From Escherichia coli (GTDB lineage: Bacteria; Pseudomonadota; Gammaproteobacteria; Enterobacterales; Enterobacteriaceae), in NCBI RefSeq assembly GCF_003018255.1, contig NZ_CP027440.1: DNA of 64,000 bases; one strand, 5' to 3'. Shown one piece after another: positions 1,661 to 23,130 of this stretch. The position numbers and the translations under genes are program-made. Every line of letters begins with the position of its first letter. The stretch's first letter is position 1. The notes under the pieces are model-generated. The model saw nothing but the letters and a program-made list of their open reading frames with translations. It was not told where the DNA came from and made no database searches.

Positions 1661-2995
1661 CTAATCCACCAGAATAATCTTCAGTGCAAACAGAGCTGCG
1701 ACCACCACCACACACAGGTTCAGATCGCGCCAGCGCCCGGTGCACACTTTCATGATGCAGTACGACATAAAGCCGAGTGCAATCCCTTCGGTGATCGAGA
1801 AAGTAAAGGGCATCATCACCGTGGTAATAAACGCAGGTACCGATTCGGTAAAATCATCCCAGTTAACGCGCGCCAGACTTGAGGTCATCAACACGCCAAC
1901 AAAGATTAACGCTCCGGCGGTTGCGTAAGGAGGAACCATCGCCACCAGCGGTGAGAAGAACATAACCAACAGGAACATAACGCCGACCACAACCGCAGTC
2001 AGCCCCGTGCGACCACCGACTGCCACACCAGAAGTACTTTCAATATAGGCGGTAACAGACGAGGTGCCGATAAACGCACCCGCCACCGAACTGACGCTAT
2101 CAACATACAGCGCCTTATTCATATTAGGGAATTTACCGTTACTATCTATTAAGCCAGCTTTATCAGTTACACCAATTAATGTTCCTGATGAATCAAATAG
2201 GTTGATCAGCATAAAGGAGAAAATGATACCGGCGAGTTCAAGTGATAACGCGCCGCTCAAATCCACTTCACCAATGACGCTGCTAATATCAGGCGGAATG
2301 GAATAGACGCCGCTAAAATGAACATCACCGAAAAATAATCCACAGCAAGACGTCACCACAATAGAAACAAGCACCGCGGCATGAAAATGACGTGATGACA
2401 ACACAGTTATAATAAAAAACCCTAAAATACCTAACAACACGCCGTGAGAACTTAAATCGCCAATCATCACCAGGGTGTCTTTATTGGCGACAATAACGCC
2501 AGTATTTTTTAATCCCATTAAGGCGATAAATAATCCGATTCCGCTGGTGATACCAATACGTAAACTTAATGGAATGTTGGAGATCATCCAGTACCGGATA
2601 CGAAACAGCGTGAGCAAAAATAGCCCAACTGCGCCCCAGAATATCGCGCCCATCCCGGTCTGCCAGGAGATACCCATCGCCCCCACGACCACGAAGGCAA
2701 AGAAGGCGTTCAGGCCCATTGCCGGAGCCAGTGCCACGGGTAAGTTAGCAAATACCCCCATCGCAATACTGCCGATACCGGCAATCAAACAGGTGGTAAC
2801 AAACACCACTTTCGGGTCCATTTGTGCCGCACCGAGGATTTGCGGGTTCACAAAAACGATGTACACCATGGTTAAAAAAGTGGTCATCCCCGCAATCAAT
2901 TCTGTGCGGACGGTGGTCCCATGCTGAGGTAGTTTAAATAATCGCGAAAGCGTCCCTGATTCATTACTCACGTAATCGGTATTGTCATTATTCAT
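1661..2995 (-). CDS. adeQ: Adenine permease AdeQ (NCS2 family), 444 aa
   Basis: ORF 1661..3073; NCS2 transporter sequence; start assigned to the ATG at 2993-2995 (MNNDNTDYVSNESG...). Confidence 0.85.
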   Translation of the reverse strand: MNNDNTDYVSNESGTLSRLFKLPQHGTTVRTELIAGMTTFLTMVYIVFVNPQILGAAQMDPKVVFVTTCLIAGIGSIAMGVFANLPVALAPAMGLNAFFAFVVVGAMGISWQTGMGAIFWGAVGLFLLTLFRIRYWMISNIPLSLRIGITSGIGLFIALMGLKNTGVIVANKDTLVMIGDLSSHGVLLGILGFFIITVLSSRHFHAAVLVSIVVTSCCGLFFGDVHFSGVYSIPPDISSVIGEVDLSGALSLELAGIIFSFMLINLFDSSGTLIGVTDKAGLIDSNGKFPNMNKALYVDSVSSVAGAFIGTSSVTAYIESTSGVAVGGRTGLTAVVVGVMFLLVMFFSPLVAMVPPYATAGALIFVGVLMTSSLARVNWDDFTESVPAFITTVMMPFTFSITEGIALGFMSYCIMKVCTGRWRDLNLCVVVVAALFALKIILVD

Positions 2996-3169
2996 TTTTT
3001 TGTCCATTGGAGGAGATTTAATCCCTTGCTTTTGTAAAACAAATGACAACAACGGTTCAGTGATAATTATCACATTTCAATTGCACATTAATGGATATTC
3101 TTTAATAATCTCGCGACGTTTCTTTATGATAAATAATAATCAAATTGATAAAATCAAAATGAGAAAAAT

Positions 3170-4936
3170 ATGAATAATTCTATTAACCATAAATTTCATC
3201 ACATTAGCCGGGCTGAATACCAGGAATTGTTAGCCGTTTCCCGTGGAGACGCTGTTGCCGATTATATTATTGATAATGTCTCTATTCTCGACCTGATCAA
3301 TGGCGGAGAAATTTCCGGCCCAATTGTGATTAAAGGACGTTACATTGCCGGTGTTGGCGCAGAATACGCTGATGCTCCGGCTTTGCAGCGGATTGATGCC
3401 CGCGGCGCAACGGCGGTGCCAGGGTTTATTGATGCTCACCTGCATATTGAATCCAGCATGATGACGCCGGTCACCTTTGAAACTGCTACCCTGCCGCGCG
3501 GCCTGACGACCGTTATTTGCGACCCTCATGAAATCGTCAACGTGATGGGCGAAGCCGGTTTCGCCTGGTTTGCCCGCTGTGCCGAACAGGCAAGGCAAAA
3601 CCAATACTTGCAGGTCAGCTCTTGCGTACCCGCCCTGGAAGGCTGCGATGTTAACGGTGCCAGTTTTACCCTTGAACAGATGCTCGCCTGGCGGGACCAT
3701 CCGCAGGTTACCGGCCTTGCAGAAATGATGGACTACCCTGGCGTAATTAGCGGGCAGAATGCACTGCTCGATAAACTGGATGCATTTCGCCACCTGACGC
3801 TGGACGGTCACTGCCCGGGTTTGGGTGGTAAAGAACTTAACGCCTATATTGCTGCGGGTATTGAAAACTGCCACGAAAGTTATCAGCTGGAAGAAGGACG
3901 CCGGAAATTACAACTCGGCATGTCGTTGATGATCCGCGAAGGGTCCGCTGCCCGCAATCTCAACGCGCTGGCACCGTTGATCAACGAATTTAACAGCCCG
4001 CAATGCATGCTCTGTACCGATGACCGTAACCCGTGGGAAATCGCCCATGAAGGACACATCGATGCCTTAATTCGCCGCCTGATCGAACAACACAATGTAC
4101 CGCTGCATGTGGCATATCGCGTAGCCAGCTGGTCGACGGCACGCCACTTTGGTCTGAATCACCTCGGCTTACTGGCACCCGGCAAGCAGGCCGATATCGT
4201 CCTGTTGAGCGATGCGCGTAAGGTCACGGTGCAGCAGGTACTGGTGAAAGGCGAGCCGATCGATGCACAAACCTTACAGGCGGAAGAGTCGGCGAGACTG
4301 GCACAATCCGCCCCGCCATATGGCAATACCATTGATCGCCAGCCAGTTTCCGCCAGCGACTTTGCCCTGCAATTTACCCCCGGAAAACGCTATCGCGTTA
4401 TTGAGGTAATCCATAACGAACTGATCACGCACTCCCGCTCCAGCGTCTACAGCGAAAACGGTTTTGATCGCGATGATGTGTGCTTTATTGCCGTTCTTGA
4501 GCGTTACGGACAACGACTGGCTCCGGCCTGTGGTTTGCTCGGCGGCTTTGGCCTGAATGAAGGTGCGCTGGCTGCGACGGTCAGCCATGACAGCCATAAT
4601 ATTGTAGTGATCGGTCGTAGCGCAGAAGAGATGGCGCTGGCGGTCAATCAGGTGATTCAGGATGGCGGCGGGCTGTGCGTGGTCCGTAACGGCCAGGTAC
4701 AAAGTCATCTACCGTTGCCCATTGCCGGGCTAATGAGCACCGACACGGCGCAGTCACTGGCGGAGCAAATTGACACCTTGAAAGCCGCCGCCCGTGAATG
4801 CGGTCCGTTACCGGATGAGCCGTTTATTCAGATGGCGTTTCTTTCCCTGCCAGTGATCCCCGCGCTGAAACTAACCAGTCAGGGGCTGTTTGATGGTGAG
4901 AAGTTTGCCTTCACTACGCTGGAAGTCACGGAATAA
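3170..4936 (+). CDS. ade: Adenine deaminase, 588 aa
   Basis: ORF 3170..4936; metal-dependent amidohydrolase motif ([12 protein letters not shown]); divergent from adeQ across an AT-rich intergenic region. Confidence 0.9.
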
Positions 4937-4964
4937 TAAAAAAAAGCCCGGCGTCATGCCGGGC
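4936..4964 (-). terminator. Rho-independent terminator hairpin after uhpT (GCCCGGC-GTCAT-GCCGGGC with a flanking A/T run)
   Basis: 7-bp GC stem at 4946-4952 / 4958-4964; A-run at 4936-4945 gives a U-run on the minus-strand transcript. Confidence 0.6.
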
Positions 4965-4982
4965 AAAAGTCACCAGTTAAGT

Positions 4983-6374
4983 TTATGCCACTGTCAACTG
5001 CTGAATTTTTTTCTCGCGGCGGATTTTGCGTTCTTCCATCACCGCCACTATCGCCATCAGGCAGATACAACCAATCGCGGCGATATCCAGCGCGGCGAAG
5101 GTGCCTGCCCAGCCGGTAAGGCCAAATACCGGCGTCCCATCGGCAATCATTCCCAGACCTAACTTGGCAAAGCTGTCACCAATCAGGTAAGCGAAGGTGC
5201 CTTTAATACCATCGGCAGCGCCAATCGCTTTTTTAGGTACAAAGCCAACAGCAGCCACACCAATCAACAATTGCGGGCCAAAGACCAGGAAACCCAACGC
5301 AAAGAGAGAAGCCAGGTAGATATATTCGTTGCTGGCGTGTTGATACACACCGAGCGTGGCGATAATCAGCGCCAGCGCGATACAGGCCACCAGGCCACGG
5401 CGACCGTTCGCCAGGTCAGAGAGCCAGCCCCACAGCAGCGTACCGACCAGCGCACCAGCTTCAAACAGCGTAAAGCCCTGAATCGCCACCGCTTTAGAGA
5501 GTTTCAGTTCCTGGAACGCATACACGGTTGACCACTGGTCGATACCAATACGCACCACATAGAGGAAAATGTTGGCGAAGCACAGCAGCCAGATCACTTT
5601 GTTTTTCAGCACATACTCAACAAAGATCTGCCACTTGGTCATATCGGTAGATTCTGTCTCTTTGTCCTCTTCGCTGATCTCCTCGCCGAACAGCTCTTCA
5701 GCTTTGCCGAGGCCATAAGATTCCGGGGAGTCGCTGCCGTAACGCAGGCCGATAAAACCGACAATCAGCGCGATAATCGACGGGAAAATAAACATGCCGA
5801 TGACATGACCATCGAACAGGTAATTTGCGCCGAACAGCGCCACACCTGCTGCGCCTGCACCACCAAGGTTGTGAGAAATGTTCCAGAAACCGAGGAATGT
5901 CCCGCGTTTACGACGCGGCGTCCATTTGGTGATGGTGGAGTAACTGCACGAACCGCCGGTACTCTGGAAAAAGCCGCTCAAGGCGTAGAAGGCAATCATC
6001 AGGAACAGGCTAACCGAGCCGCTGCCCATACTGGCACTGAAGCCCAGCATACAAATGGCGGACAGAATCAGCATGAACGGCAGGAATTGTTTGGTGTTTT
6101 TGCCGTCGGCGTAGTAAGAAACCAGCGTTTTACCCACGCCATAAGTGATGGAGAAGCCCAGGCCGATCATCCCCAGCTGCGTCATGCTCAACCCGTAGGT
6201 CGAGATCATGTCGTTCTGCGCGATGTTAAAGTTCTTGCGAATCAGGTACATCGTAAGGTAGCCGATAAAGACCACCAGGTAGGATTGCATGAACGGTTTG
6301 AACCACATTTTGCGCCGCACTTCGAGCGGAAGGTCCAGGGTCGGCTTGCGAACCTGGTTTAGGAAAGCCAGCAT
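4983..6374 (-). CDS. uhpT: Hexose-6-phosphate:phosphate antiporter UhpT, 463 aa
   Basis: ORF 4983..6374; MFS organophosphate antiporter sequence ([33 protein letters not shown]...). Confidence 0.95.
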
Positions 6375-6571
6375 GGGTTACTCCTGATTTCCCTTCATAC
6401 TTCAAGCCGCAGGTGCCTTAGCTGCACGCATTCCTCCCGGTCACATAGTTCACTATGCTCCCGGGACTCACGCGTTTGCTGCGTTCCTGCAACTTGAATT
6501 ATTTTGGGAAAGAATTAATGAATGATGGCATTGTAAAAATCAGCAGCAAATCAGGCCTGAGATAGCGTCCA

Positions 6572-6603
6572 GGCAAAACCTGGAAAATTTCTTAGTTTTG
6601 CCG
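6572..6603. promoter_or_regulatory. Perfect 8-bp inverted repeat GGCAAAAC-N16-GTTTTGCC upstream of uhpT; candidate UhpA-binding element
   Basis: Read directly from sequence in the uhpC-uhpT intergenic region; functional assignment is inference. Confidence 0.4.
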
Positions 6604-6629
6604 GATATGAAGTGAAAAGGTGAGATGCA

Positions 6630-7949
6630 TCACGCTTCGCGCGGTGTCTGGGCGTTCAAAAAGGGCAGTAACAGCAGTGCGGAAACCCCGGCGGCAATGG
6701 CGATAACCACAAAAAATCCGCTCCAGTGCCAGGTATCGAGCACTTTCGCCAGCGGCCAACCAGCAAGCGACGCCCCCAGATAAGCAAACAAGCCGACAAA
6801 CCCCGTCGCCGCCCCTGCCGCCTCTTTGTGGGAACATTCTGCCGCCGCCATGCCGATTAACATCTGCGGGCCAAAGACAAAAAAACCAATGGTGAAGAAG
6901 CAGGTTGCCTGCATCACGTAGCTGGCAAATGGCATCAGCCACAGCGAGCCGACTGAAAGCAAAATTCCGGCGGCGAAAATCAAATTCATCGGCCCGCGGT
7001 TGCCGTTAAACAATTTGTCCGAGCCCCAACCCGCTACCAGCGCACCGATAAATCCACCCAGTTCAAACATCGTCACTGCCGTATTCGCCGTGACCAGATC
7101 GACGCCCAGCGTCTCGGACATATACAAATTGCCCCAGTCGTTGATTGCCGCCCGGACCACATAGACCAGCACATAGCAAAACGAAAGCAGCCAGATATAC
7201 GGATTCAGTAACACATATTTGGTGAGGATCTCTTTACGCGTCAGCCCTGCCCCTTCTTGTTGTTGAGCTATCTCCAGCGCGTCGTGCCGCCATTCACCAA
7301 CCGCCGGTAAACCTAACGCCTGCGGGCGATCGCGCAGCCGCCAGCAGAGAAAAATCCCCACGACTATCGCCATACAACCCGCAATCATCATCCCGGCACG
7401 CCAGCCGTAATGCAGCGCGCTCGCTGCCATCACAATGGGAATGAGTGCGCCGCCGACGTTATGCGCCGTGTTCCATAATGCCCACCAACCGCCGCGCTCG
7501 GTACGAGAATACCAGGCGGTTAACAGACGCGCACACACCGGTGAACCCCAGCCCTGGAAAAAGGCGTTCAACACCCAAAGCACGGCAAACGCCCATAGCG
7601 ACGTCGAGAAGCCAAACAGAATGTTGATAATGCCCGTGGCAATAAGCCCTATCCCCATAAAATAACGGGCATTTGAGCGATCGCTGACAATGCCGGAGAC
7701 AAACTTCGACACGCCGTAGGTAATGTAAAACAGGGTCGCTAACAGGCCAATATCGCTACGGCTGAGCACGCCGTTAGCAAGGATTTCTGGTACGGCGGCG
7801 TTAAAACTTTTACGCGTGAAGTAAAACAGCGCGTAACCCAGCCAGATGGTCAGCAGAATATGCCGACGCCAGTAGCGATAGCGGGCATCAATTTCATGTT
7901 TATCAGTCAGTAATGGCGCATCGGCAGGCGCTTTCAGAAACGGCAACAT
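6630..7949 (-). CDS. uhpC: Glucose-6-phosphate sensor/MFS protein UhpC, 439 aa
   Basis: ORF 6630..7952 (MMLPFL...); second Met taken as start. Confidence 0.9.
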   Translation of the reverse strand: MLPFLKAPADAPLLTDKHEIDARYRYWRRHILLTIWLGYALFYFTRKSFNAAVPEILANGVLSRSDIGLLATLFYITYGVSKFVSGIVSDRSNARYFMGIGLIATGIINILFGFSTSLWAFAVLWVLNAFFQGWGSPVCARLLTAWYSRTERGGWWALWNTAHNVGGALIPIVMAASALHYGWRAGMMIAGCMAIVVGIFLCWRLRDRPQALGLPAVGEWRHDALEIAQQQEGAGLTRKEILTKYVLLNPYIWLLSFCYVLVYVVRAAINDWGNLYMSETLGVDLVTANTAVTMFELGGFIGALVAGWGSDKLFNGNRGPMNLIFAAGILLSVGSLWLMPFASYVMQATCFFTIGFFVFGPQMLIGMAAAECSHKEAAGAATGFVGLFAYLGASLAGWPLAKVLDTWHWSGFFVVIAIAAGVSALLLLPFLNAQTPREA

Positions 7950-7958
7950 CATCGAACC

Positions 7959-9464
7959 TTAGACATAACGTTGAGGTAGAGAAACGCTGACACGCGTGCC
8001 GTGCAGACAGGAAATGTGTAATGTGCCACCCAGCGCCGTTACGCGCTCGCGCATTCCGGTAAGGCCAAAACCGTGTTGCCCGGAATCTGGCGGTAAACCG
8101 CTGCCATCGTCTTCAATCACCAGCATTAACCGCTCATCATGCTGCCAGCCTTGCAGCGTGACCGCGCTGGCATCGGCATGTTTCACAATGTTGTTCAACC
8201 CTTCCTGGCAGACGCGAAATAGCGTCACGCGCTGGTTTTCGCTTAACGCTGATTCATCGATTCGCCATTCGAGATGACTGACAATGCCGCGCCCTTCCAG
8301 CTCCATTTCCCGCATCAGTGAGCGGATGGCCTGCTCCAGGGTGAGATCATCCAGCTGGCGCGGACGTAACCGCCCTAACAAGCGGCGCACCGCGTCGTAA
8401 ACGCCCAGCGATAGTTGTTCGATGAGCTGCCCGCTCTGTTTCACGCTGGCGTTATCCGCCGCGAGCCGCTGGACAATGCCCGCTTGAGTTCGAATAGCAG
8501 TAATGGTCTGACCGATATCATCGTGCAGCTCACGTGCCACATCACGGCGCACGCTCTCTTCGGTTTCCAGCAACCGTTCAGCGAGATGCTGATTGCGCGC
8601 CAGTTCCTTTTGCAGCGACTGGTTAAGTTCACGCAACCGCTGGATGCCTGCGCCCAGTAACAACCCTGTCAGACTTTGCACCAGCAGCGAGAGCAATAAA
8701 TCCACCGGATGATCGCGCCAGGTTTGACTGGCGATCAGCGCGATGGCGTTCATCAACGTCGCAATTAGCGCCCCTTGCCAGCCATAGTGCCAGGCCAGCG
8801 CGATAATCGGCAGCGCCAGGCAGAATGGCGTAAAGCGCGACAGTTCGTCCGGCAATCCCAACTGGAGCCAGAGACTGATAACAAACAGCAGCAAGTACCA
8901 GACCAGATGCCGCCCACGCCAGTTGATCGGTTGAGAAACTAACGACGGGCCGAGCGGCAGCCAGGTGTTATTGGCGAGATAGTGCCAGAACACCAGACAT
9001 ATCGGGGCCAGCGTCAGGCCGCCAGTTAAAGTCAGCAACAGCGCATTCCACGACTCTTTGCCGTGCCAAAGCCAGGGCAGCGACTGCAACAACGCCGCCG
9101 CCGTTAATGCCGCCCCTTGTAGCAGCAAGGTGCGCCAGTCACGTTGATGGCGATAGCGCGAGATCAGCGCCACGGGCAGTAACGTCAGTAAACTACCGAT
9201 CATCAATAAGAAGAAATGGGTTAAACCGACCGCCTGCGTTAACCAGTAAATCAGCAGCCACTCCGCGCCCAGCAACACCGGCCAGTATCCGCGCGGGCAT
9301 TGCAGCATTAGCCCCAGACGCAGACCAAACGGAAATAACAGCACCGCCATATCAGGGCGCTCAACCAGGTGCAGGCTGATACTCCACAGGCAAAACCATG
9401 CGGCAGAGAAGATAAAAAAGCAGGCAATAACGGTAATTAAGCGGGAGAACAACGTCTTCATCAC
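7959..9464 (-). CDS. uhpB: Sensor histidine kinase UhpB
   Basis: ORF 7959..9464; N-terminal membrane domain plus HisKA_3/HATPase C-terminus; start overlaps uhpA stop by 4 nt (ATGA). Confidence 0.9.
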
Positions 9465-10051
9465 CAGCCATCAAACATACGGCGCGCCAGTTCAACGTCG
9501 TTACTGACGCCCAGTTTTTCCATCAGATTGGCGCGATGGACGTGTACCGTTTTCGGTGACAAGCCCAGTTCGGCGGCAATCTCTTTCACCGCCATTCCTT
9601 GCGCCAGTTTTTCTGCCACCTGGCGTTCGCGTTTGGTTAGCGGGTCCTGGCGACCGGATGCCAGTTTAATGGCAATATCCGGCGTCAGATAACAGCCGCC
9701 AGTGGCAACCGTATGCACCGCAGCAATGAGTTCATCCGGGCTACAGCGTTTGGAGAGAAAGCCGCGCGCCCCGGCGTTAAGCGCCTGCTCAACCAGCGCC
9801 GGACTGTCGTGAACGGAGAGCATAATTGTCGCCATGCCTTTCGGCAGCTGGCTTAGAAGCTCCAGACCGGAGATATCAGGCATGGAGATATCGCAAATAC
9901 ACACCTGCACACCGCGCCCCGGCAGCCCCGCCAGCGCCTCGCGCCCCGAACCAAACTCGGCAACTACCTGCAAATCAGGTTCCAGCCCCAGCAGCTGCGC
10001 AAAGCCGGAGCGGACGATAAGGTGATCGTCTATAAGGGCAACGGTGATCAT
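9461..10051 (-). CDS. uhpA: Response regulator UhpA (NarL/FixJ family), 196 aa
   Basis: ORF 9461..10051; receiver domain plus LuxR-type HTH. Confidence 0.95.
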
Positions 10052-10123
10052 GATCTTGTCCTGGAGGGTAATAAAACGCGCTTACCTTAACGATAAGCGC
10101 GATGTTGTTCAAGCCTTGAGCGG

Positions 10124-10414
10124 TTACTGAAAAAACACCGCAATCTTGTTAAACATGGTCGGATCGGACTGATTACGCTGCACTTTCACCACATCTTCCA
10201 GCTTGTCGATTTGGCTTATCATCTGCTCCAGACGCTGGTCGTCATTGACCAGTAGCCAGATGTGGCTTTTGTCGCTGTCCTGAATCGGCAGGCAGAGAAT
10301 ACCTTCAACGTTAAAAGCGCGACGGGCAAAAAGGCCACAAACGTGGGTCATTACGCCCGGATGGTTGCGAACGGTGAGTTCGAGAATCACGTTGTCATGA
10401 GTTGTGTTTTGCAT
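10124..10414 (-). CDS. ilvN: Acetolactate synthase I small (regulatory) subunit, 96 aa
   Basis: ORF 10124..10414 ([40 protein letters not shown]...). Confidence 0.95.
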
Positions 10415-10417
10415 GGC

Positions 10418-12106
10418 TTATTCCCCCACCATTTCAGTATTCGCCGCACCTGGCGGCACCATCGGGTACACTTTTTCTTCGGCATCAATGCGCACGTGGA
10501 TCAGCGCCGGGCCAGGGCGATTGATGATTTCCTGCAATGCAGCCTGCGGATCGGCTTCGTTATTCAAATCACAGGTTTCGAGGCCGAATCCTGCGGCAAT
10601 CTGCATAAAGTTGATTTTGCCCGGATAGGTAGCGGCAAAAACGCCCTGCTTGTAGAACAGACTCTGTTGCTGATGCACCAGCCCCAGCGCTTCGTTGTTC
10701 ATCAAAATGATTTTAACATCCAGCTGATTTTCACTGGCGGTCGCCATCTCCTGAATATTCATCATCAGGCTGCCGTCGCCGGAGAAGCACAACACTTTGC
10801 GGTCCGGGTTCGCCAGCGCCGCGCCAATCGCCGCAGGCAGGCCAAAGCCCATCGTGCCCAGCCCGCCGGAGGTCAGCCACTGGCGTGGGCGATTGAGCGG
10901 ATAGGCTTGCGCCGTCCACATCTGATGCTGACCCACGTCAGTGGTAATAATCGCGTTGTCATCCACGCAGGCGGCAACGGCATTAATCAGGCCGTAATGG
11001 CTTAATGGATCGCACGCTTTCGGGATTGGACACGGGAATTCACGCTGCAAATCCGCCACCAACTGGTGCCACTCTGCACGCGGTTGCGCTTCCACCAGCG
11101 GGATCAACTGCGCCAGCACGTCATCAACATCCGCCTGAATTGCCACATGCGGTTGCTTGATTTTGCCCAGCTCTGCGCGGTCGATATCGACATGAATAAT
11201 TTTGGCATTCGGACAGAACTGCTCGGTTTTGCCAATCGCCCGGTCATCAAAACGCGCACCGAGTACAATCAGCAGATCCGCCTCCTGCAAAATATAGTTG
11301 GTGCTGCGCACACCGTGCATCCCCAGCATACCCAGCGACAGCGGATGTGCTTTTGGCAACATACCCAGTGCCATTAAAGTCATGGTGGTAGGCAGTTGCG
11401 CTTTCTCCGCCAGTTCACGCACTCGCGCAGGCGCGTTGATCACACCACCACCCAGATAAAGCACCGGGCGTTTGGCGGCGTTAATCATCGCCGCCGCGTC
11501 ACGAATACTTTCTTCGCTAAAGGCGGGTGCGGCGGCTTTTTCTGCCATAGCGGGCTGTGTTTCAATCTCAAAAACTGCCGTTTGCACATCCTTAGGAATG
11601 TCTATCCACACCGGGCCAGGGCGGCCTGATTGCGCAATACGGAAGGCATCGCTCATGACCTGCGGGAGTTCTTCGATATGTCTGACCAGATAGTTGTGTT
11701 TGGTGATGGGGATAGAGATGCCGTAGGTGTCGACTTCCTGGAAGGCGTCGGTGCCGATCATCGAGGCGGGAACCTGACCAGTAATGCAAATCAGCGGGAT
11801 GGAGTCCAGCCGTGCATCGGCAATGGCGGTCACCAGGTTAGTCGCCCCCGGTCCGCTACAGGCCATACAGACCGCCGGTTTACCGTCGGTGCGCGCCATT
11901 CCCTGAGCGATAAACCCCGCGCCCTGTTCATGGCGAGCCAGAATATGGCGGATTTGCGTGCTTTGGCTTAAGGCATCGTAAACAGGCAGGATAGAACCGC
12001 CCGGAATGCCCGTCACAATCTTAATGCCCTGCTGTTCCAGGAAATGAACGATAAATTCTGCGCCGGTAAAGCGCTTACGCGTCGATGTTGTGCCCGAACT
12101 TGCCAT
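10418..12106 (-). CDS. ilvB: Acetolactate synthase I large subunit, 562 aa
   Basis: ORF 10418..12106; thiamine diphosphate enzyme sequence. Confidence 0.95.
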   Translation of the reverse strand: MASSGTTSTRKRFTGAEFIVHFLEQQGIKIVTGIPGGSILPVYDALSQSTQIRHILARHEQGAGFIAQGMARTDGKPAVCMACSGPGATNLVTAIADARLDSIPLICITGQVPASMIGTDAFQEVDTYGISIPITKHNYLVRHIEELPQVMSDAFRIAQSGRPGPVWIDIPKDVQTAVFEIETQPAMAEKAAAPAFSEESIRDAAAMINAAKRPVLYLGGGVINAPARVRELAEKAQLPTTMTLMALGMLPKAHPLSLGMLGMHGVRSTNYILQEADLLIVLGARFDDRAIGKTEQFCPNAKIIHVDIDRAELGKIKQPHVAIQADVDDVLAQLIPLVEAQPRAEWHQLVADLQREFPCPIPKACDPLSHYGLINAVAACVDDNAIITTDVGQHQMWTAQAYPLNRPRQWLTSGGLGTMGFGLPAAIGAALANPDRKVLCFSGDGSLMMNIQEMATASENQLDVKIILMNNEALGLVHQQQSLFYKQGVFAATYPGKINFMQIAAGFGLETCDLNNEADPQAALQEIINRPGPALIHVRIDAEEKVYPMVPPGAANTEMVGE

Positions 12107-12153
12107 GCTCCAGTCCTTTTCTTCTGGGCCGACTTTCCGGGAGGTGCTTAAAC

Positions 12154-12190
12154 GAAAAACCCCGCCCGGTTTGCGCCGGCGGGGTTTTGG
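12154..12190 (-). terminator. ilvB leader attenuator (intrinsic terminator hairpin with U-tract)
   Basis: Minus-strand CCCCGCCGGCGCAAACCGGGCGGGG followed by TTTTTCGTTT, between ivbL and ilvB. Confidence 0.7.
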
Positions 12191-12211
12191 AATCGTGTGT
12201 TGTTCCAGTCC

Positions 12212-12310
12212 CTACGGCGCATTGCCGACGACCACCACCACACGCACGACGACCACTGCGGCGGATGGCGCAGTTGGTAGTAGTTTTGCGTTGAGCATGG
12301 AAGTAGTCAT
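12212..12310 (-). CDS. ivbL: ilvB operon leader peptide, 32 aa (Val/Leu-rich)
   Basis: Minus-strand ORF ATG ACT ACT TCC ATG CTC ... encoding MTTSMLNAKLLPTAPSAAVVVVRVVVVVGNAP with a run of Val codons. Confidence 0.85.
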   Translation of the reverse strand: MTTSMLNAKLLPTAPSAAVVVVRVVVVVGNAP

Positions 12311-12436
12311 TGGGGACCTTGTTGGTTTTGTGTTTAACAATATTTATACAAGCACAGCTTTACAGGGGAGACAATGGAAAATTTTTCAGCAAGGGAAAAT
12401 TGAGGGGTTGATCACGTTTTGTACTGAATTGCAGGT

Positions 12437-12513
12437 AACAAAAAACCCCGCCGGAGCGAGGTTTCGTCAGTCGCCTGCGGCTGGTAACCGCAAAGCACAC
12501 TGTATTATGTCAA
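12437..12513 (-). ncRNA. istR: IstR-1 antitoxin sRNA of the tisB/istR type I toxin-antitoxin locus (approximate ends)
   Basis: Minus strand reads GTTGACATAATACAGTGTGCTTTGCGGTTACCAGCCGCAGGCGACTGACGAAACCTCGCTCCGGCGGGGTTTTTTGTT, ending in an intrinsic terminator; a TATACT -10 lies just upstream. Confidence 0.6.
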
Positions 12514-12619
12514 CACTGAAAGTATACGTGTTCCGCGCAGAACGCGCAATTTCGGCACGAATTTTGACGTATTTAGTGCATAGTTGAGTATCGATCACAG
12601 TTTGCGTTTTGTCCAATAT

Positions 12620-12639
12620 TACTGTTTATTTATACAGTA
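12620..12639. promoter_or_regulatory. LexA box TACTGTTTATTTATACAGTA at the tisAB promoter (TATAAT -10 at 12646-12651)
   Basis: Canonical CTGT-N8-ACAG SOS box read directly from sequence. Confidence 0.8.
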
Positions 12640-12873
12640 AACTTCTATAATATCACTGTACGCAATGTGTTATGCGGGGGCCGCATCGTTACCCGGCGCA
12701 CTAAGTCCTGGCAGAAACGGGTGGTGCCGTCAGCGCCTTAACCCCGCGTGAGCACACTGTGTTATGTCAACAAGCACAACGTTTCTCCTTGAGATACCGC
12801 GTGCACAACAGCTGGCAACAGGCAGCGGAAAGGTACGTCAGCTGGCAGTGCTCCTGAACCACAGGAGACGCGT

Positions 12874-12963
12874 ATGAGCCTGGTGGATATCGCCATTCTT
12901 ATCCTCAAACTCATTGTTGCAGCACTGCAACTGCTTGATGCTGTTCTGAAATACCTGAAGTAA
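12874..12963 (+). CDS. tisB: Type I toxin TisB, 29 aa (SOS-induced membrane peptide)
   Basis: ORF encodes MSLVDIAILILKLIVAALQLLDAVLKYLK, followed by an intrinsic terminator. Confidence 0.85.
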   Translation: MSLVDIAILILKLIVAALQLLDAVLKYLK

Positions 12964-12983
12964 TTCAGATTCAAGTCGCACTA

Positions 12984-13014
12984 AAGGGGAGCGGGTAACC
13001 GCTCCCCTTTTATA
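12984..13014 (+). terminator. Intrinsic terminator after tisB (AAAGGGGAGCGGG-TAAC-CGCTCCCCTTTT)
   Basis: Perfect GC-rich stem followed by a T-run. Confidence 0.8.
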
Positions 13015-13242
13015 TTTAGCGTGTGGGTTGGTGTCGGATGCGATGCTGACGCATCTTATCCGCCCTACCATCCCTCCCGGCAACATTTATTGCCGCTTTT
13101 GTTTACATATTCTGCCGCTAAACAATTCCCCATTCCTGGCGTATATCTGGCTAACATTTATCAATGTGATAGATTCCTCTCCCGCATTTATGGGAATGCG
13201 TAGTGACTTATTCTAATTATTTTTATAAAAGCATCCGTGATA

Positions 13243-15628: not shown

Positions 15629-15687
15629 TGTTGCTCCTTGTAAACTGTTCCTCGCCGAAAAATTAGGCCAGGAACAGCAATAATGCA

Positions 15688-17181: not shown

Positions 17182-18893
17182 AGGCTATCCTTCGCGTCGG
17201 GAGTAAAGGTTACGGCTGGGTCGTGACGATGCCGCCAGCTATCAAAAATCAGGTAGACAATCACTACGGCGGCAATGAAATAACTGATCATCGCTAACCA
17301 GCGCGTACCGTAGCCGCCGAATTCAGCCAGCCCGGCATAGACGCCAATCATCGCGAACAGGATGCCCATTGACGCGATCTTGACGTTTTTCCACGGTTTC
17401 ATGTCCACCGCAAACGCATCTTTGAAGGTGAACGGCGTGGCGCGCGGTTTGATAAAACCGATCACCAGCATCACGACCACGTTGATGCAGAACGTACAGG
17501 CCAGCACATAGAGGAAATGGAAGTCGAACTTCACCAGATAGTTGATGGTGATGTAGCTGATTATGCCAATCCCCATCGCCACTTTTGCCGCCAGCGCCGG
17601 GATGCGCGGGAAGAAAAAGCCCATAATGATGATGGTAACCAGCGGCACGTTGTAAATGCCGTTGAGCTGTTTCATCCAGCTATACAGCCCCTGCGGCGCG
17701 TTGGCGATCCACGGCGCTACCAGCACCGAAACGATGGCGATAAAGAAACCAAATTTGCGCCCGACGGTGACCAGCTGCTGCGGCTCGGCATTCTGGTTAA
17801 TGATGCGCCGGTAAATACCCATACTGAATAACGTACTGGCGCTATTCAGAAAGCCGTTGAAGGTACTGATCACCGCACCAAATAACACCGCGCCGAAGAA
17901 ACCCACCAGTGGCACTGGCAGAACGTTATTGACCAGCGTCGGGTAGGCCATGTCGGCTTTCGGTAGATCCTGATACAGATGAAACGCAATCAACCCTGGC
18001 AGCACCAGTACCAGCGGGTCGAGCATTTTCAGCACCGCCGTTAACAGCGCCCCCTTTTGCCCTTCCGCCAGGCTTTTTGACGCCAGCGTGCGTTGCACGA
18101 TGCCCTGATTTGTACACCAGTAAAAGGTGTTCACCAGAATCAAACCGGTAAATGCCGCGCCAATCGGCAAGGGATCGGTCGGGCCGCCGACTGAGTTTAA
18201 TTTCTCGGCGTGAACGGTGGTGAGTTGCTCAATGCCCTGCATAAAGCTGCCCTTGCCCATCGCGATCAGGCCAAATACCGGCACCATCAACCCGCCAATA
18301 ACCAGCCCAATACCGTTAATGGAGTCCGCCACTGCCATTGCGCGCAGTCCGCCGATCACCGCATACAAAATTCCCGCCAGACCAAGCAAAATAACCAGTA
18401 ACCAGATAGCCGCACCATCGGAAAGTTGTAGCGACTCACCCACATGAAACAGGCTGTTGAGCGCCAACGCGCCGGAATAGAGAACAATCGGCAGAAAGCA
18501 GACGCCGGTGGCAATGAGGAAGCAGAAGTCGATGATAATACGCGTCGTTTTATCATAACGTTCCTCCAGAAAATCGGGGATGGTGGCAATGCTGCGCTTC
18601 AGATAGCGCGGTAAAAAGATTAGCGCGAGGAAGATCAGCGTCACTGCAGAGGTGACTTCCCAGCCCATCACCGACATGCCACTTTTGTAGGCCTGCCCAG
18701 AAAGGCCGACCAGTTGTTCCGTGGAAAGGTTGGTTAGCATTAACGAAGCGGCAATAACCGGCGCTTTTAGTGAACGTCCGGCAAGAAAATAGCCTTGTTG
18801 CGATCCGGTATCTGTTTTACGGACCTTCCACCAGGTGATGACCGCTACCAGCAGCGTAAAACCGACAAAACTCAAGATTTGTAACGAATTCAT
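17178..18893 (-). CDS. yidK: Sodium:solute symporter family transporter YidK, 571 aa
   Basis: ORF 17178..18893; polytopic membrane protein; 4-nt overlap with yidJ. Confidence 0.9.
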   Translation of the reverse strand: MNSLQILSFVGFTLLVAVITWWKVRKTDTGSQQGYFLAGRSLKAPVIAASLMLTNLSTEQLVGLSGQAYKSGMSVMGWEVTSAVTLIFLALIFLPRYLKRSIATIPDFLEERYDKTTRIIIDFCFLIATGVCFLPIVLYSGALALNSLFHVGESLQLSDGAAIWLLVILLGLAGILYAVIGGLRAMAVADSINGIGLVIGGLMVPVFGLIAMGKGSFMQGIEQLTTVHAEKLNSVGGPTDPLPIGAAFTGLILVNTFYWCTNQGIVQRTLASKSLAEGQKGALLTAVLKMLDPLVLVLPGLIAFHLYQDLPKADMAYPTLVNNVLPVPLVGFFGAVLFGAVISTFNGFLNSASTLFSMGIYRRIINQNAEPQQLVTVGRKFGFFIAIVSVLVAPWIANAPQGLYSWMKQLNGIYNVPLVTIIIMGFFFPRIPALAAKVAMGIGIISYITINYLVKFDFHFLYVLACTFCINVVVMLVIGFIKPRATPFTFKDAFAVDMKPWKNVKIASMGILFAMIGVYAGLAEFGGYGTRWLAMISYFIAAVVIVYLIFDSWRHRHDPAVTFTPDAKDSL

Positions 18894-19059
18894 CTCATAG
18901 CCCTTATTTATGTTTATGTCCCGGACGCATGAATATAGGGAGAGGTAAAATGCGTCGGGTCAGGCAGTCAGATTCTTAAAATACAAACGTCGTATCCCTG
19001 AACGGATTGTTTTCTGTTAAGTTCAGGTTGTGAGCATAATTCGCCGGAGGGATATTAAA

Positions 19060-19926
19060 ATGAATGGAAAATTGCAAAGTTCGGATGTAAAAAACGAAAC
19101 TCCGTACAATATTCCCTTATTGATTAACGAAAATGTGATCTCCAGCGGAATTTCTCTGATATCGCTCTGGCATACCTACGCCGACGAGCATTATCGGGTG
19201 ATCTGGCCGCGGGACAAGAAGAAACCGCTTATCGCCAACTCATGGGTTGCGGTGTATACCGTACAAGGATGTGGGAAAATTCTTTTAAAGAATGACGAGC
19301 AAATAACTCTGCATGGCAACTGTATTATATTTTTAAAGCCAATGGATATTCACTCTTATCACTGTGAAGGTTTGGTCTGGGAACAGTACTGGATGGAATT
19401 TACCCCCACCAGTATGATGGATATTCCCGTCGGTCAGCAAAGCGTTATTTATAATGGCGAAATTTATAATCAGGAACTCACCGAAGTTGCTGAATTAATT
19501 ACTTCACCAGAAGCAATAAAAAATAATCTGGCAGTCGCTTTTCTGACGAAAATTATTTATCAGTGGATTTGTCTTATGTACGCAGACGGTAAAAAAGATC
19601 CACAACGGCGGCAAATTGAAAATTTAATTGCCACTTTACATGCCAGTCTGCAACAACGCTGGAGCGTAGCTGATATGGCTGCCACGATCCCCTGTAGCGA
19701 AGCCTGGTTGCGTCGTCTGTTTTTACGCTATACCGGCAAGACGCCGAAAGAATATTACCTCGATGCGCGTCTGGATCTGGCGCTATCGCTATTAAAACAA
19801 CAAGGAAACTCGGTTGGCGAAGTCGCTGATACGCTCAACTTCTTCGACTCCTTTCATTTCAGCAAAGCCTTTAAGCATAAATTTGGTTATGCGCCGTCAG
19901 CTGTGCTGAAGAATACGGACAGGTAA
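19060..19926 (+). CDS. yidL: AraC-family transcriptional regulator YidL
   Basis: ORF 19030..19926 (track start is GTG); ATG at 19060 follows a GGAGG Shine-Dalgarno; C-terminal AraC-type HTH. Start codon uncertain. Confidence 0.75.
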   Translation: MNGKLQSSDVKNETPYNIPLLINENVISSGISLISLWHTYADEHYRVIWPRDKKKPLIANSWVAVYTVQGCGKILLKNDEQITLHGNCIIFLKPMDIHSYHCEGLVWEQYWMEFTPTSMMDIPVGQQSVIYNGEIYNQELTEVAELITSPEAIKNNLAVAFLTKIIYQWICLMYADGKKDPQRRQIENLIATLHASLQQRWSVADMAATIPCSEAWLRRLFLRYTGKTPKEYYLDARLDLALSLLKQQGNSVGEVADTLNFFDSFHFSKAFKHKFGYAPSAVLKNTDR

Positions 19927-20015
19927 TAACCAGAATGGCGAGTGTGTAAATGACTCGATGATGTTCAGAAATACCAGGTGGAGTACCATTTACGGCGACT
20001 CCACCCGGAAAAGAG

Positions 20016-21677
20016 TTAACCGATACTCCAGAAGAGCACCGCCAGTAATTGGGGGGTGATAATGCGCAGGAACATCACTAACGGATAGACAGTGGCGTAA
20101 GAGAGCGCCGCCGCACCGCTGGTTGGATGAAGATTATTAGCAAACGCCAGCGCCGGAGGATCGGTCATGGAACCTGCCAGCATCCCGCACATGGTCAGGT
20201 AATTCATTTTGGCTAACATCCGCGCCAGAATGCCAACAGTAATCAGCGGAACGGCGGTGATCAGGGCACCATAACCAATCCAGCTTAGCCCTTCGCCATT
20301 GACCAGGGTATTCACAAAATCCCCACCAGATTTCAGACCAACGACCGAGAGGAACAGCACAATGCCTAACTCGCGTAGCGCCAGGTTAGCGCTTGGTGGC
20401 ATAAACCAGTACAGCTTGCCGATACTGCCGATACGCCCGAGGATCAACGCCATAATCAGCGGACCGCCCGCCAGCCCGAGTTTCAACGCCGCCGGGAACC
20501 CAGGCACAAAGACGGGAATAGAACCTAACAATACGCCAAGCCCGATACCAATAAACACTGGCAGCATCTGAACCTGTTGCAGTTTTTGCTGCGCATTCCC
20601 CAGCACATTGGCAACGGCATCAATTGCGGACGGACGCCCCACCAGGTTGAGGATATCGCCGAACTGCAGGCTGATATCGCTACTTGCAACTAATTCAACA
20701 CCAGCACGGTTCAGGCGCGAGATAACAACGTCATAGCGTTCTTTAAAGTGCAGGTCGCGAATACGTTTACCGAGCACGTTTTCATTGGTGACCACCACAC
20801 GCGCGACGCGCAAATCAGTGCCTTTCGTAGACAGCGAGGTATCGACCTCCTGACCAATCACCAGTTGCGCATTATGTAAATCCGCAGGCTGCCCCACCAG
20901 ATGCAGCAAATCGCCCAGTTGAATAACGGTTTCTGGCGAAGGCACTTTTAGGGTTTCTTCTCGTTTCAATCGTGAGCAAATAACTTTATCGCCATTGAGA
21001 ATCGGCACATCTTTAATGGCTAAATTATGCAAATTAGGATTCTCAACTCGGATGTTAATCGTCCTGATTAGCGCACCGCCGTTGGTTCGCGTGGACTCGT
21101 GCTGCTGGGCCTCAGTCTCAACATTGACGCGGAAAATAACCCGCAGCATCCACATAGTGAACAAAATGCCGCAAATCCCAAATGGATACGCCATCGCATA
21201 GCTCATCCCCATTTGATCGACCATCGCCATCGGTGTCCCCAGGTCGCGCAAGATCTGCTGCCCTGCCCCCAGCGCTGGCGTATTGGTGACCGCGCCGGAA
21301 AAAATCCCCAGCACTACCGGCAGTGGAATATCAAACAGTTTATGCAGGATGGCGGTAACCAGACCACCGATGATGACGATCAGAACAGCAAACAGGTTGA
21401 GGCGTAATCCGGAGACGCGCAATGAGGCAAAGAAGCCCGGCCCTACCTGAATCCCGATGGTATAAACGAACAGGATCAGGCCAAACTCCTGAATAACATG
21501 CAGCATATCGCTACTTAATGTCATCCCCGCCTGAGAAACAAAATGGCCGACGATGATCCCACCGAACAGCACGCCGCCAATGCCCAATCCAACACCGCGA
21601 AACTTGACGTTGCCGATAAACAACCCGACGACCGCCACCAAAGCCAGAATACTGACCGTTAATGCTATATCACTCAT
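20016..21677 (-). CDS. yidE: Putative transporter YidE (AAE family), 553 aa
   Basis: ORF 20016..21701; start assigned to [14 protein letters not shown]... at 21675-21677. Confidence 0.85.
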
Positions 21678-21828
21678 CGTCCATTTCTCTTGAGATAACA
21701 TTTTAATTGCTACGGATTATGGCTGAATCGGTGAAGCAGATTTGCCTTATAGCGCACATTATCACGGGAAAGAACGTGCCGAAATATCTTAAACAGGCGA
21801 AAATTAACGCATTGTTGAAGAAGAAAGA

Positions 21829-21857
21829 CAAAAAAGCCCCACCAGAATGGCGGGGCA
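21829..21857 (-). terminator. Intrinsic terminator after ibpB
   Basis: GC stem (GCCCCACC/GGCGGGGC) with an adjacent A/T run. Confidence 0.5.
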
Positions 21858-21871
21858 AAGAGAATAGCTAG

Positions 21872-22300
21872 TTAGCTATTTAACGCGGGACGTTCGCTGA
21901 TAGCGATACGCTGCGCTGCGATGGGTTCAGGCTCATTACGAATTAAATCAATATGCAGTAAACCGTTTACGAAGGTTGCACCAGAGACTTCCATATTTTC
22001 AGCCAGCGTAAAGCTCAGGCTAAATGGCTGATTCATAAGCCCTTGATGCAGCCATTTTTTCTCTTCTTTTGGCTGCTCCGGCGTGCCTTTTACGCTCAGG
22101 CGCGTACCTTCCAGTTGAATCTCTAAATCTTCCTGACGAAAACCTGCCAGCGCAAGGGTAATGCGGTAGTGGTTATCGTCGCTTTTCTCAATGTTGTACG
22201 GCGGGAAGCTCTGGCTTTCACCGGCGTTTTGCAGTGCGTTGGCCAGTTTGTCAAAACCGATCCATTGACGCATCAGTGGGGATAAATCGAAGTTACGCAT
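21872..22300 (-). CDS. ibpB: Small heat shock protein IbpB, 142 aa
   Basis: ORF 21872..22396; start at internal ATG ([16 protein letters not shown]...); alpha-crystallin domain. Confidence 0.9.
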
Positions 22301-22411
22301 AGTCATTTCTCCTTCTAAGAAGCGAGTAAGTACCTGCAAATCCGAAGATTCGCATATGCTCCCTGACGGCGAGCATGGAGATGTCAGGCCGCGCAAGGCG
22401 GCCTTAGGGAA

Positions 22412-22825
22412 TTAGTTGATTTCGATACGGCGCGGTTTTTTCGCTTCCGGAATCACGCGTTCGAGATCGATATACAGCAAACCATTTACCAGGTTAGCAC
22501 CACGAACATGAATGTTCTCAGCTAACTGGAATTTGCGTTCAAAGTTGCGTTCAGCGATGCCCTGGTACAGATAGGTGCGCTCTTTTTGTTCGTCGGCGTG
22601 AGCACCTTTCACCACCAGCAGATTATCCTGGGCGGTAATTTCCAGTTCGCTCTCAGCAAAACCAGCCACAGCGATAGCAATGCGGTAATGGTTTTCGTCT
22701 ACCAGTTCAACGTTATACGGAGGGTAGCCGCCATTACTCTGGCTCTGGTTGTTTTCTAAGTGGTTAAACAAACGGTCAAATCCAATAGCAGAACGGTAAA
22801 GCGGGGATAAATCAAAGTTACGCAT
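22412..22825 (-). CDS. ibpA: Small heat shock protein IbpA, 137 aa
   Basis: ORF 22412..22831; start at [16 protein letters not shown]... Confidence 0.95.
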
Positions 22826-22917
22826 AATCAATAGCTCCTGAAATCAGCGAGAATCTAAGACCTTCCACAATGGACAGGTCAGGTAGCCAGAACCCCCATC
22901 AGGCGCGTCCTCATCGG
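22826..22917 (-). promoter_or_regulatory. ibpA 5' UTR (ROSE-like RNA thermometer region)
   Basis: About 90-nt leader between the sigma32 promoter and the ibpA start, containing the SD AGGAG; thermometer function is from established knowledge of ibpA. Confidence 0.5.
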
Positions 22918-22921
22918 CTAC

Positions 22922-22956
22922 GATGTAAAAATGGGTCTGGAAATGAACTTTTCAAG
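22922..22956 (-). promoter_or_regulatory. sigma32 heat-shock promoter of ibpAB (CTTGAAA-N13-CCCATTTTT)
   Basis: Minus strand reads GGCTTGAAAAGTTCATTTCCAGACCCATTTTTAC; matches the sigma32 consensus TTGAAA / CCCCATNT. Confidence 0.8.
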
Positions 22957-23130
22957 CCTTATCAGCGGACTTTTTTTTGCAGTTTATGGTCTATTGCATA
23001 GACTGAGGGGGCAGCACGAAACGTTAAAGTGCGATAGCCGCCACAGTGCGACGTTATGATGATGTTATTTTCAGCAAGGGATCGCTATAACTCATCAGGC
23101 CAACACCCACGATCAACAGATGAATTTATT

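Follow-up and report, generated by a model that had tools for sequence, protein, structure and literature searches.

The closest described relative of the locus considered here is the glvCBG-yidP operon of Escherichia coli K-12, a cryptic alpha-glucoside/arbutin PTS operon. The gene order in MG1655 is yidL, glvG (a pseudogene), glvB, glvC, yidP and yidE. The K-12 operon is degraded by comparison with that of an ST38 strain (positions 6174-8604 of K-12 locus L001 against 2530-5468 of ST38 locus L003), such that glvG, annotated as a pseudogene, falls 508 bp short of the 1323 bp of the intact gene, and a single 538-residue IICB gene is split into glvC and glvB. A K-12 derivative also has a copy of IS1A within the glv block.

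Intact and apparently functional glvA/glvCB/yidP modules lie beside yidE, at the same position and in the same order, in O157:H7, ST38, Klebsiella, Kluyvera and Citrobacter. In O157:H7 and the ST38 strain, the intact allele encodes a 440-residue GH4 enzyme annotated as a 6-phospho-alpha-glucosidase (glvA/glvG), a 538-residue alpha-glucoside-specific PTS IIBC (glvCB; 959 bits against TIGR02005) and the 238-residue GntR/UTRA regulator YidP. The intact module is comparable to the aglA/aglB alpha-glucoside system of Klebsiella pneumoniae described by Thompson and colleagues.

The window, a 64,000-nucleotide stretch of E. coli DNA, contains the same site between yidL and yidE, but the apparently functional module found there in other strains and genera is absent. 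K-12 keeps the degraded block, whereas the window is without all of it except a stub of yidP, made up of the last 105 or so nucleotides of that gene with a hairpin.

The yidL-yidE junction and the direction of the event

In the window, yidL (plus strand) and yidE (minus strand) are convergent and are separated by a spacer of 89 bp (19927-20015). The genes yidK and yidJ lie upstream of yidL, and ibpB and ibpA lie beyond yidE. The YidE reading frame of 561 residues scores 988 bits against NCBIfam PRK03818. The coordinates of the features at the locus are collected in Table 1.

Table 1. Coordinates of genes, junction features and the stem-loop at the yidL-yidE locus of the window
Feature	Position	Strand	Description and basis
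yidL, AraC-family regulator	ORF 19030-19926; RefSeq-type start 19060	+	ORF list and RefSeq coordinates of a 99.6%-identical genome
Left breakpoint	19920..19921		Homology to yidL of block carriers ends, 33 bp before the K-12 yidL stop; blastn and alignments
Diverged yidP remnant	~19924-19969	+	yidP nt about 611-657 of 717; provides the new yidL stop
Secondary 10-bp deletion	19969..19970		K-12 has AATGCCAGCG there; alignment
Last 46 nt of yidP	19970..20015	+	100% identical to K-12 yidP
Stem-loop	19974..20008	-	First paired base 20008, beginning 7 nt after the yidE stop; folding and conservation
yidE, putative AspT/YidE/YbjL-family transporter	ORF 20016-21701; RefSeq start 21677	-	NCBIfam PRK03818

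A preliminary description of this DNA had placed yidL and yidE about 90 bp apart, had stated that K-12 carries glvG-glvB-glvC and yidP between them, and had taken the absence of these genes as the mark of an indel junction at a locus unlike that of K-12. The measured spacer and the MG1655 annotation both agree with this account. By blastn, window positions 18000-19920 match positions 4224-6144 of the K-12 locus at 97.7% identity, and positions 19926-23000 match 9513-12598 at 95.9% identity. Both flanks are therefore collinear with K-12 and the glv-yidP block between them is skipped by the alignment. The gene order given for K-12 might have been wrong, with K-12 sharing the same short junction, but K-12 has the block in its place. 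The junction is confirmed as real and the earlier reading as essentially right, with three refinements. An assembly or sampling artefact can be set aside altogether, given that the identical junction is present in 1136 independently finished genomes.

The spacer is best read as the junction of one old deletion, which arose once, of an ancestral alpha-glucoside module and which left a stub of yidP behind; we assign this reading a probability of about 90%. The deletion begins 33 bp ahead of the original yidL stop and reaches to about nucleotide 611 of yidP, thereby removing the GH4 gene glvA/glvG, the alpha-glucoside PTS EIICB gene glvCB and most of yidP. Its length is about 3.87 kb when measured on the intact allele and about 3.37 kb on the degraded K-12 allele. 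In this scheme, yidL picked up a new stop from yidP-derived DNA and kept its whole HTH domain. The last 105 or so nucleotides of yidP stayed in place, with the 46 nt beside yidE unchanged while the rest decayed and lost a further 10 bp. The 46-nt part may have been retained because it supplies the convergent yidE transcript with a 3' stem-loop.

The direction of the event is indicated by an outgroup survey, in which a YidE scan with one genome per species gave 80 loci that were mapped by tblastn; E. fergusonii, E. marmotae and E. ruysiae are not among the loci returned, and the picture for the genus is to that extent incomplete. At least 12 loci from several genera have the order yidE-yidP-glvCB-glvA-yidL-yidK-yidJ, including those of Citrobacter braakii, Klebsiella oxytoca, several Kluyvera, Enterobacter sp. 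JUb54 and Pseudocitrobacter, among others. The protein divergence of the block in those genera is similar to that of its flanks. The same site and order across genera, together with this flank-like divergence, argue that the block is ancestral at this site. Given an ancestral block and a remnant of yidP in the spacer, the state of the window results from a deletion rather than from an insertion in K-12.

The opposite polarity, with the short arrangement as the ancestral state and glvGBC-yidP inserted later in K-12-like strains, would account for the tight fit of the K-12 block, the ends of which abut the flanking genes with 4-bp overlaps of convergent stops on both sides. It could also draw on the 46 nt that are shared by K-12 and the window, which lie almost wholly beyond the Pfam UTRA domain (this ends at residue 224 of 238), such that an inserted yidP could have read into intergenic DNA that was already there. 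The diverged part of the spacer, however, is significantly homologous to yidP nt 613-657, which falls within the UTRA domain, and the remnant is interrupted by a 10-bp gap that destroys its frame. Taken with the block at the same place and in the same order in many genera, these results largely refute the insertion reading and leave it very improbable.

Gene order with yidE directly beside yidL, in the absence of the block, is also found in C. youngae, C. werkmanii, C. sedlakii, S. enterica arizonae, Trabulsiella and Pluralibacter. Their spacers are unrelated and of differing lengths, and these differing junctions show that the block was lost independently in those genera. In the block-less Citrobacter and Salmonella loci (L012, L014, L017 and L019), REP-like palindromes (containing GCCGGATAAG or CTTATCCGGC) take the place of the yidP-derived hairpin in the yidE-yidL spacer. 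Additional copies occur as well. Two Superficieibacter loci (L079, 11687-19545, and L081, 11672-19517) have two tandem, diverged yidP-glvCB-glvA modules between yidE and yidL, and locus L030 has a second, diverged copy of yidP (11684-13125).

The remnant of yidP and the end of yidL

The spacer had been described as containing only a hairpin, and on this point the account has to be corrected, as the whole spacer derives from the 3' end of yidP. The right-hand blastn match to K-12 begins about 100 nt inside yidP, and the spacer is thus not neutral filler. Its last 46 nt encode the 15 C-terminal residues of YidP in K-12 and overlap the yidE stop by 4 bp. The other, diverged stretch can be assigned on its own. 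When these 49 nt alone are compared with the whole of yidP, the best local match is to the collinear nt 613-657, with a score of 20, as compared to 8.7±1.3 (maximum 15) for 300 shuffles. The same 49 nt match the collinear place in yidP from many genera. A hand count on the aligned sequences gives 32 of 46 ungapped identities to K-12 yidP, or about 70%. The matching yidP segment encodes part of the UTRA domain of YidP, which spans residues 87-224 of 238. The frame of the remnant is broken by the 10-bp gap listed in Table 1, and the same gap is present in every junction-carrying genome compared.

Mapping of the breakpoints, as proposed in the preliminary description, succeeded in part. The left edge of homology with yidL of block carriers could be placed to the base, and in E. 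whittamii, Escherichia sp. E1V33 and 'E. coli' E69 the yidL homology extends 3 bp further (AACCAG, followed by TAATAA). The exact original breakpoints and the mechanism of deletion cannot be read from these sequences, given that the event is too old, the remnant is too diverged and the intact allele shows no microhomology where it was broken. Direct repeats on either side of the junction were also looked for, as proposed, and only chance matches of 8-14 nt were returned, none of which marks the breakpoints.

The deletion cost yidL its last 11 codons. YidL of the window ends in AVLKNTDR, as compared to AVLKNTDQHPTDASPHN in K-12 (KNTDQHPTDASPHN in shorter form). The stop codon is the TAA at 19924-19926, and a second in-frame TAA follows directly. 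In the 298-residue YidL reading frame, the Pfam HTH_18/HTH_AraC domains extend to residue 294, which is before the altered tail, and the DNA-binding domain of YidL is therefore intact.

An antisense reading frame of 30 codons (19897-19989, minus strand) spans the junction and would encode the hydrophobic peptide MVLHLVFLNIIESFTHSPFWLLPVRILQHS. It was judged to be a chance frame and not a gene: most of the differences between lineages are non-synonymous, the putative ribosome binding site would be inside the hairpin stem, and a frame of 30 codons is not unlikely by chance. From a reading of their sequences, the frame is also open in E. whittamii and E69.

The stem-loop beside yidE

The hairpin that was first described, GGTGGAGT...ACTCCACC, occupies positions 19977-20005 and can be extended to arms at 19974-19984 and 19998-20008. 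It has one match in the 64-kb window, with none expected from shuffles. The RNA of the minus strand folds into a 14-pair stem of -24.2 kcal/mol (z = -5.95), and none of 200 shuffles was as stable. A dispersed palindrome of the REP or BIME type was considered and rejected, as the hairpin is single copy in the window and a 300-bp query across the junction matches one locus per genome. A scan of 19500-20500 against Rfam at E ≤ 10 returned two chance-level matches, far below the gathering threshold.

K-12 has the hairpin base for base within the last codons of yidP, and the hairpin is also found in most genera in which yidP lies directly against yidE. The deletion therefore did not create it as a scar. 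In an alignment of 35 sequences from many genera, 84.7% of cells are paired, as compared to 25-50% with slid partners. One stem pair is found as UG, CG, GC and UA across genera, and it is the only pair that changes on both sides. The pattern of substitution also distinguishes the two strands. Two conserved G·U pairs can form on the minus strand only and become A·C mismatches on the other strand, and in strain 536 a T-to-C change at 19979 retains pairing only on the strand of yidE. The stem is intact in all four Escherichia lineages that have lost yidP, whereas the adjoining remnant has decayed.

Most likely, then, the stem-loop serves the yidE transcript as a terminator, possibly a weak one, or as a 3' stabiliser. 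Such a role would explain why the 46-nt stub has survived. In genomes that carry the block, constraint on the coding sequence of YidP could by itself account for conservation of the hairpin. As with Rho-independent terminators between or inside convergent genes, the element is a stable, GC-rich stem-loop that begins shortly past a stop codon, and its pairing fits the strand of yidE. It differs from them in the tail that follows the stem, UAUUUCU (UAUUUCUG), which is a weak U tract with no direct run of U. A consensus scan for promoters and terminators (at least 5 T in 8) called no site within 19700-20300, and the role of the stem-loop in the yidE transcript thus stays putative.

Distribution and age of the junction

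The junction of the window was sought with a 300-bp query in 5426 complete E. coli genomes. It is present in 1136 (about 21%), and 4282 have the block; the characterization of the locus as unlike K-12 therefore holds up as a division within the species. Carriers of the junction include the uropathogenic strain 536, Iso00225 and avian APEC O78:H4 strains, and 536 and the APEC O78:H4 strains belong to phylogroups B2 and G. Carriers of the block include K-12, O157:H7, O103, O111, O145 and ST38. Only DETEC-S792 is more than 99% identical to the window over 12 kb, which points to a sparsely sampled lineage. As judged from the annotations of the deleted genes, carriers of the junction would have lost PTS-dependent uptake and hydrolysis of alpha-glucosides together with the regulator of this system.

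Several further differences in gene content were observed among these genomes. DETEC-S792, which is 99.6% identical, has IS200C insertions at the points that match window positions of about 4944 and about 32946, and the window is without both. The window has no yidI, the gene found in K-12 between yidH and yidJ: about 590 bp of K-12 sequence correspond to about 49 bp (15639-15687) that contain the inverted repeat CTGTTCCT…AGGAACAG. The yidI gene is also missing from the annotations of DETEC-S792 and APEC O78:H4. Strain IPCEC48 (NZ_AP026794.1), which carries the junction, has an ISApl1-family, IS30-like element in the yidL-yidE stretch (window 18900-21800); a second 'transporter' entry for this strain suggests that the element may be inside yidE.

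The junction is not restricted to E. coli in the strict sense. A junction that is identical down to the 10-bp secondary deletion and the diverged remnant is found in 536, Iso00225 and APEC O78:H4, and also in E. whittamii, Escherichia sp. E1V33 and E69, a divergent 'E. coli' that is the representative of a separate GTDB species. The flanks of the last three differ from the window by 6-12%. Shared breakpoints, the shared 10-bp gap and the shared remnant across Escherichia argue for a single, old origin. Recurrent deletion, in which the same junction was made several times in E. coli of the B2/G type and in each cryptic lineage, might be considered given that repeated losses of the block have occurred in other genera and that the site could be prone to deletion. 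The chance that this occurred is very small, however, as all of the Escherichia carriers have these three features in common and the losses in other genera left quite different spacers.

The spacer of the window is a mosaic. In the half that contains the hairpin, the sequence is that of K-12 and departs from that of E. whittamii at 7 of 46 positions, but the other 54 nt are exactly those of E. whittamii, from which the adjoining end of yidL differs at 7 of 31 positions. The yidL gene of the window is only 1.7-2.6% diverged from that of block-carrying E. coli, as compared to 5.5% for yidE. The yidE gene is 94.4-94.5% identical to its counterparts in K-12, ST38 and O157, whereas those three share 98.3-99.1% identity among themselves. 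Within E. coli, yidE (20016-21677) falls into two deeply diverged haplotype classes, 5.5% apart, where representatives of phylogroups A, D and E differ among themselves by 0.9-1.7%. The differences cluster at 20600-21400 and go together with whether the block is present.

An ABBA/BABA-style count of derived sites shared with E. whittamii, with E. albertii as the outgroup, gives 21 for the window and 10 for K-12 overall, and 17 and 5 in the centre of yidE; with few and linked sites (p about 0.07 overall), the result is suggestive only. Together with the mosaic spacer and the greater divergence of yidE than of yidL, the excess of shared derived sites would fit a history in which the one old event was followed by lateral spread of the deleted allele among Escherichia by homologous recombination, rather than by retention of a polymorphism. 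We consider such spread possible, at somewhat less than even odds. Throughout the flanks, however, K-12 is nearer to the window than any of the cryptic lineages is, the site counts are limited as described, and a very similar pattern would be expected from incomplete lineage sorting of an old polymorphism.

A broader proposal, to which we also give somewhat less than even odds, is that the deletion allele is an ancient haplotype that crosses Escherichia species (B2/G-type E. coli, E. whittamii, E1V33 and E69), whether as a long-lived polymorphism or by recombination together with the diverged yidE, and that the stub is kept for the yidE stem-loop. If so, a piece of the dead gene yidP would be kept alive by the need of its neighbour, yidE.

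In practice, the junction is a clean marker of presence or absence by which about one fifth of E. coli genomes can be told from K-12-like strains, and lineages that carry it are predicted to be unable to use alpha-glucosides via the Glv PTS route. It is ordinary gene-content variation, and the arrangement is already known in the sense that it is annotated in more than 1000 public genomes. A search of the open-access literature found no description of the glv-yidP polymorphism by phylogroup. The details given here do not change the understanding of the locus and are of modest interest, as a tidy, small example of a deletion remnant kept beside a convergent gene, with one junction across Escherichia species.

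The junction resembles other gene-loss polymorphisms in catabolic operons of E. coli in that the deletion is clean, the flanks are conserved and the loss is fixed in some lineages only. It differs from them in that the same junction is also found outside of E. coli sensu stricto, which sets it apart from the usual phylogroup marker as an older or a more mobile one.
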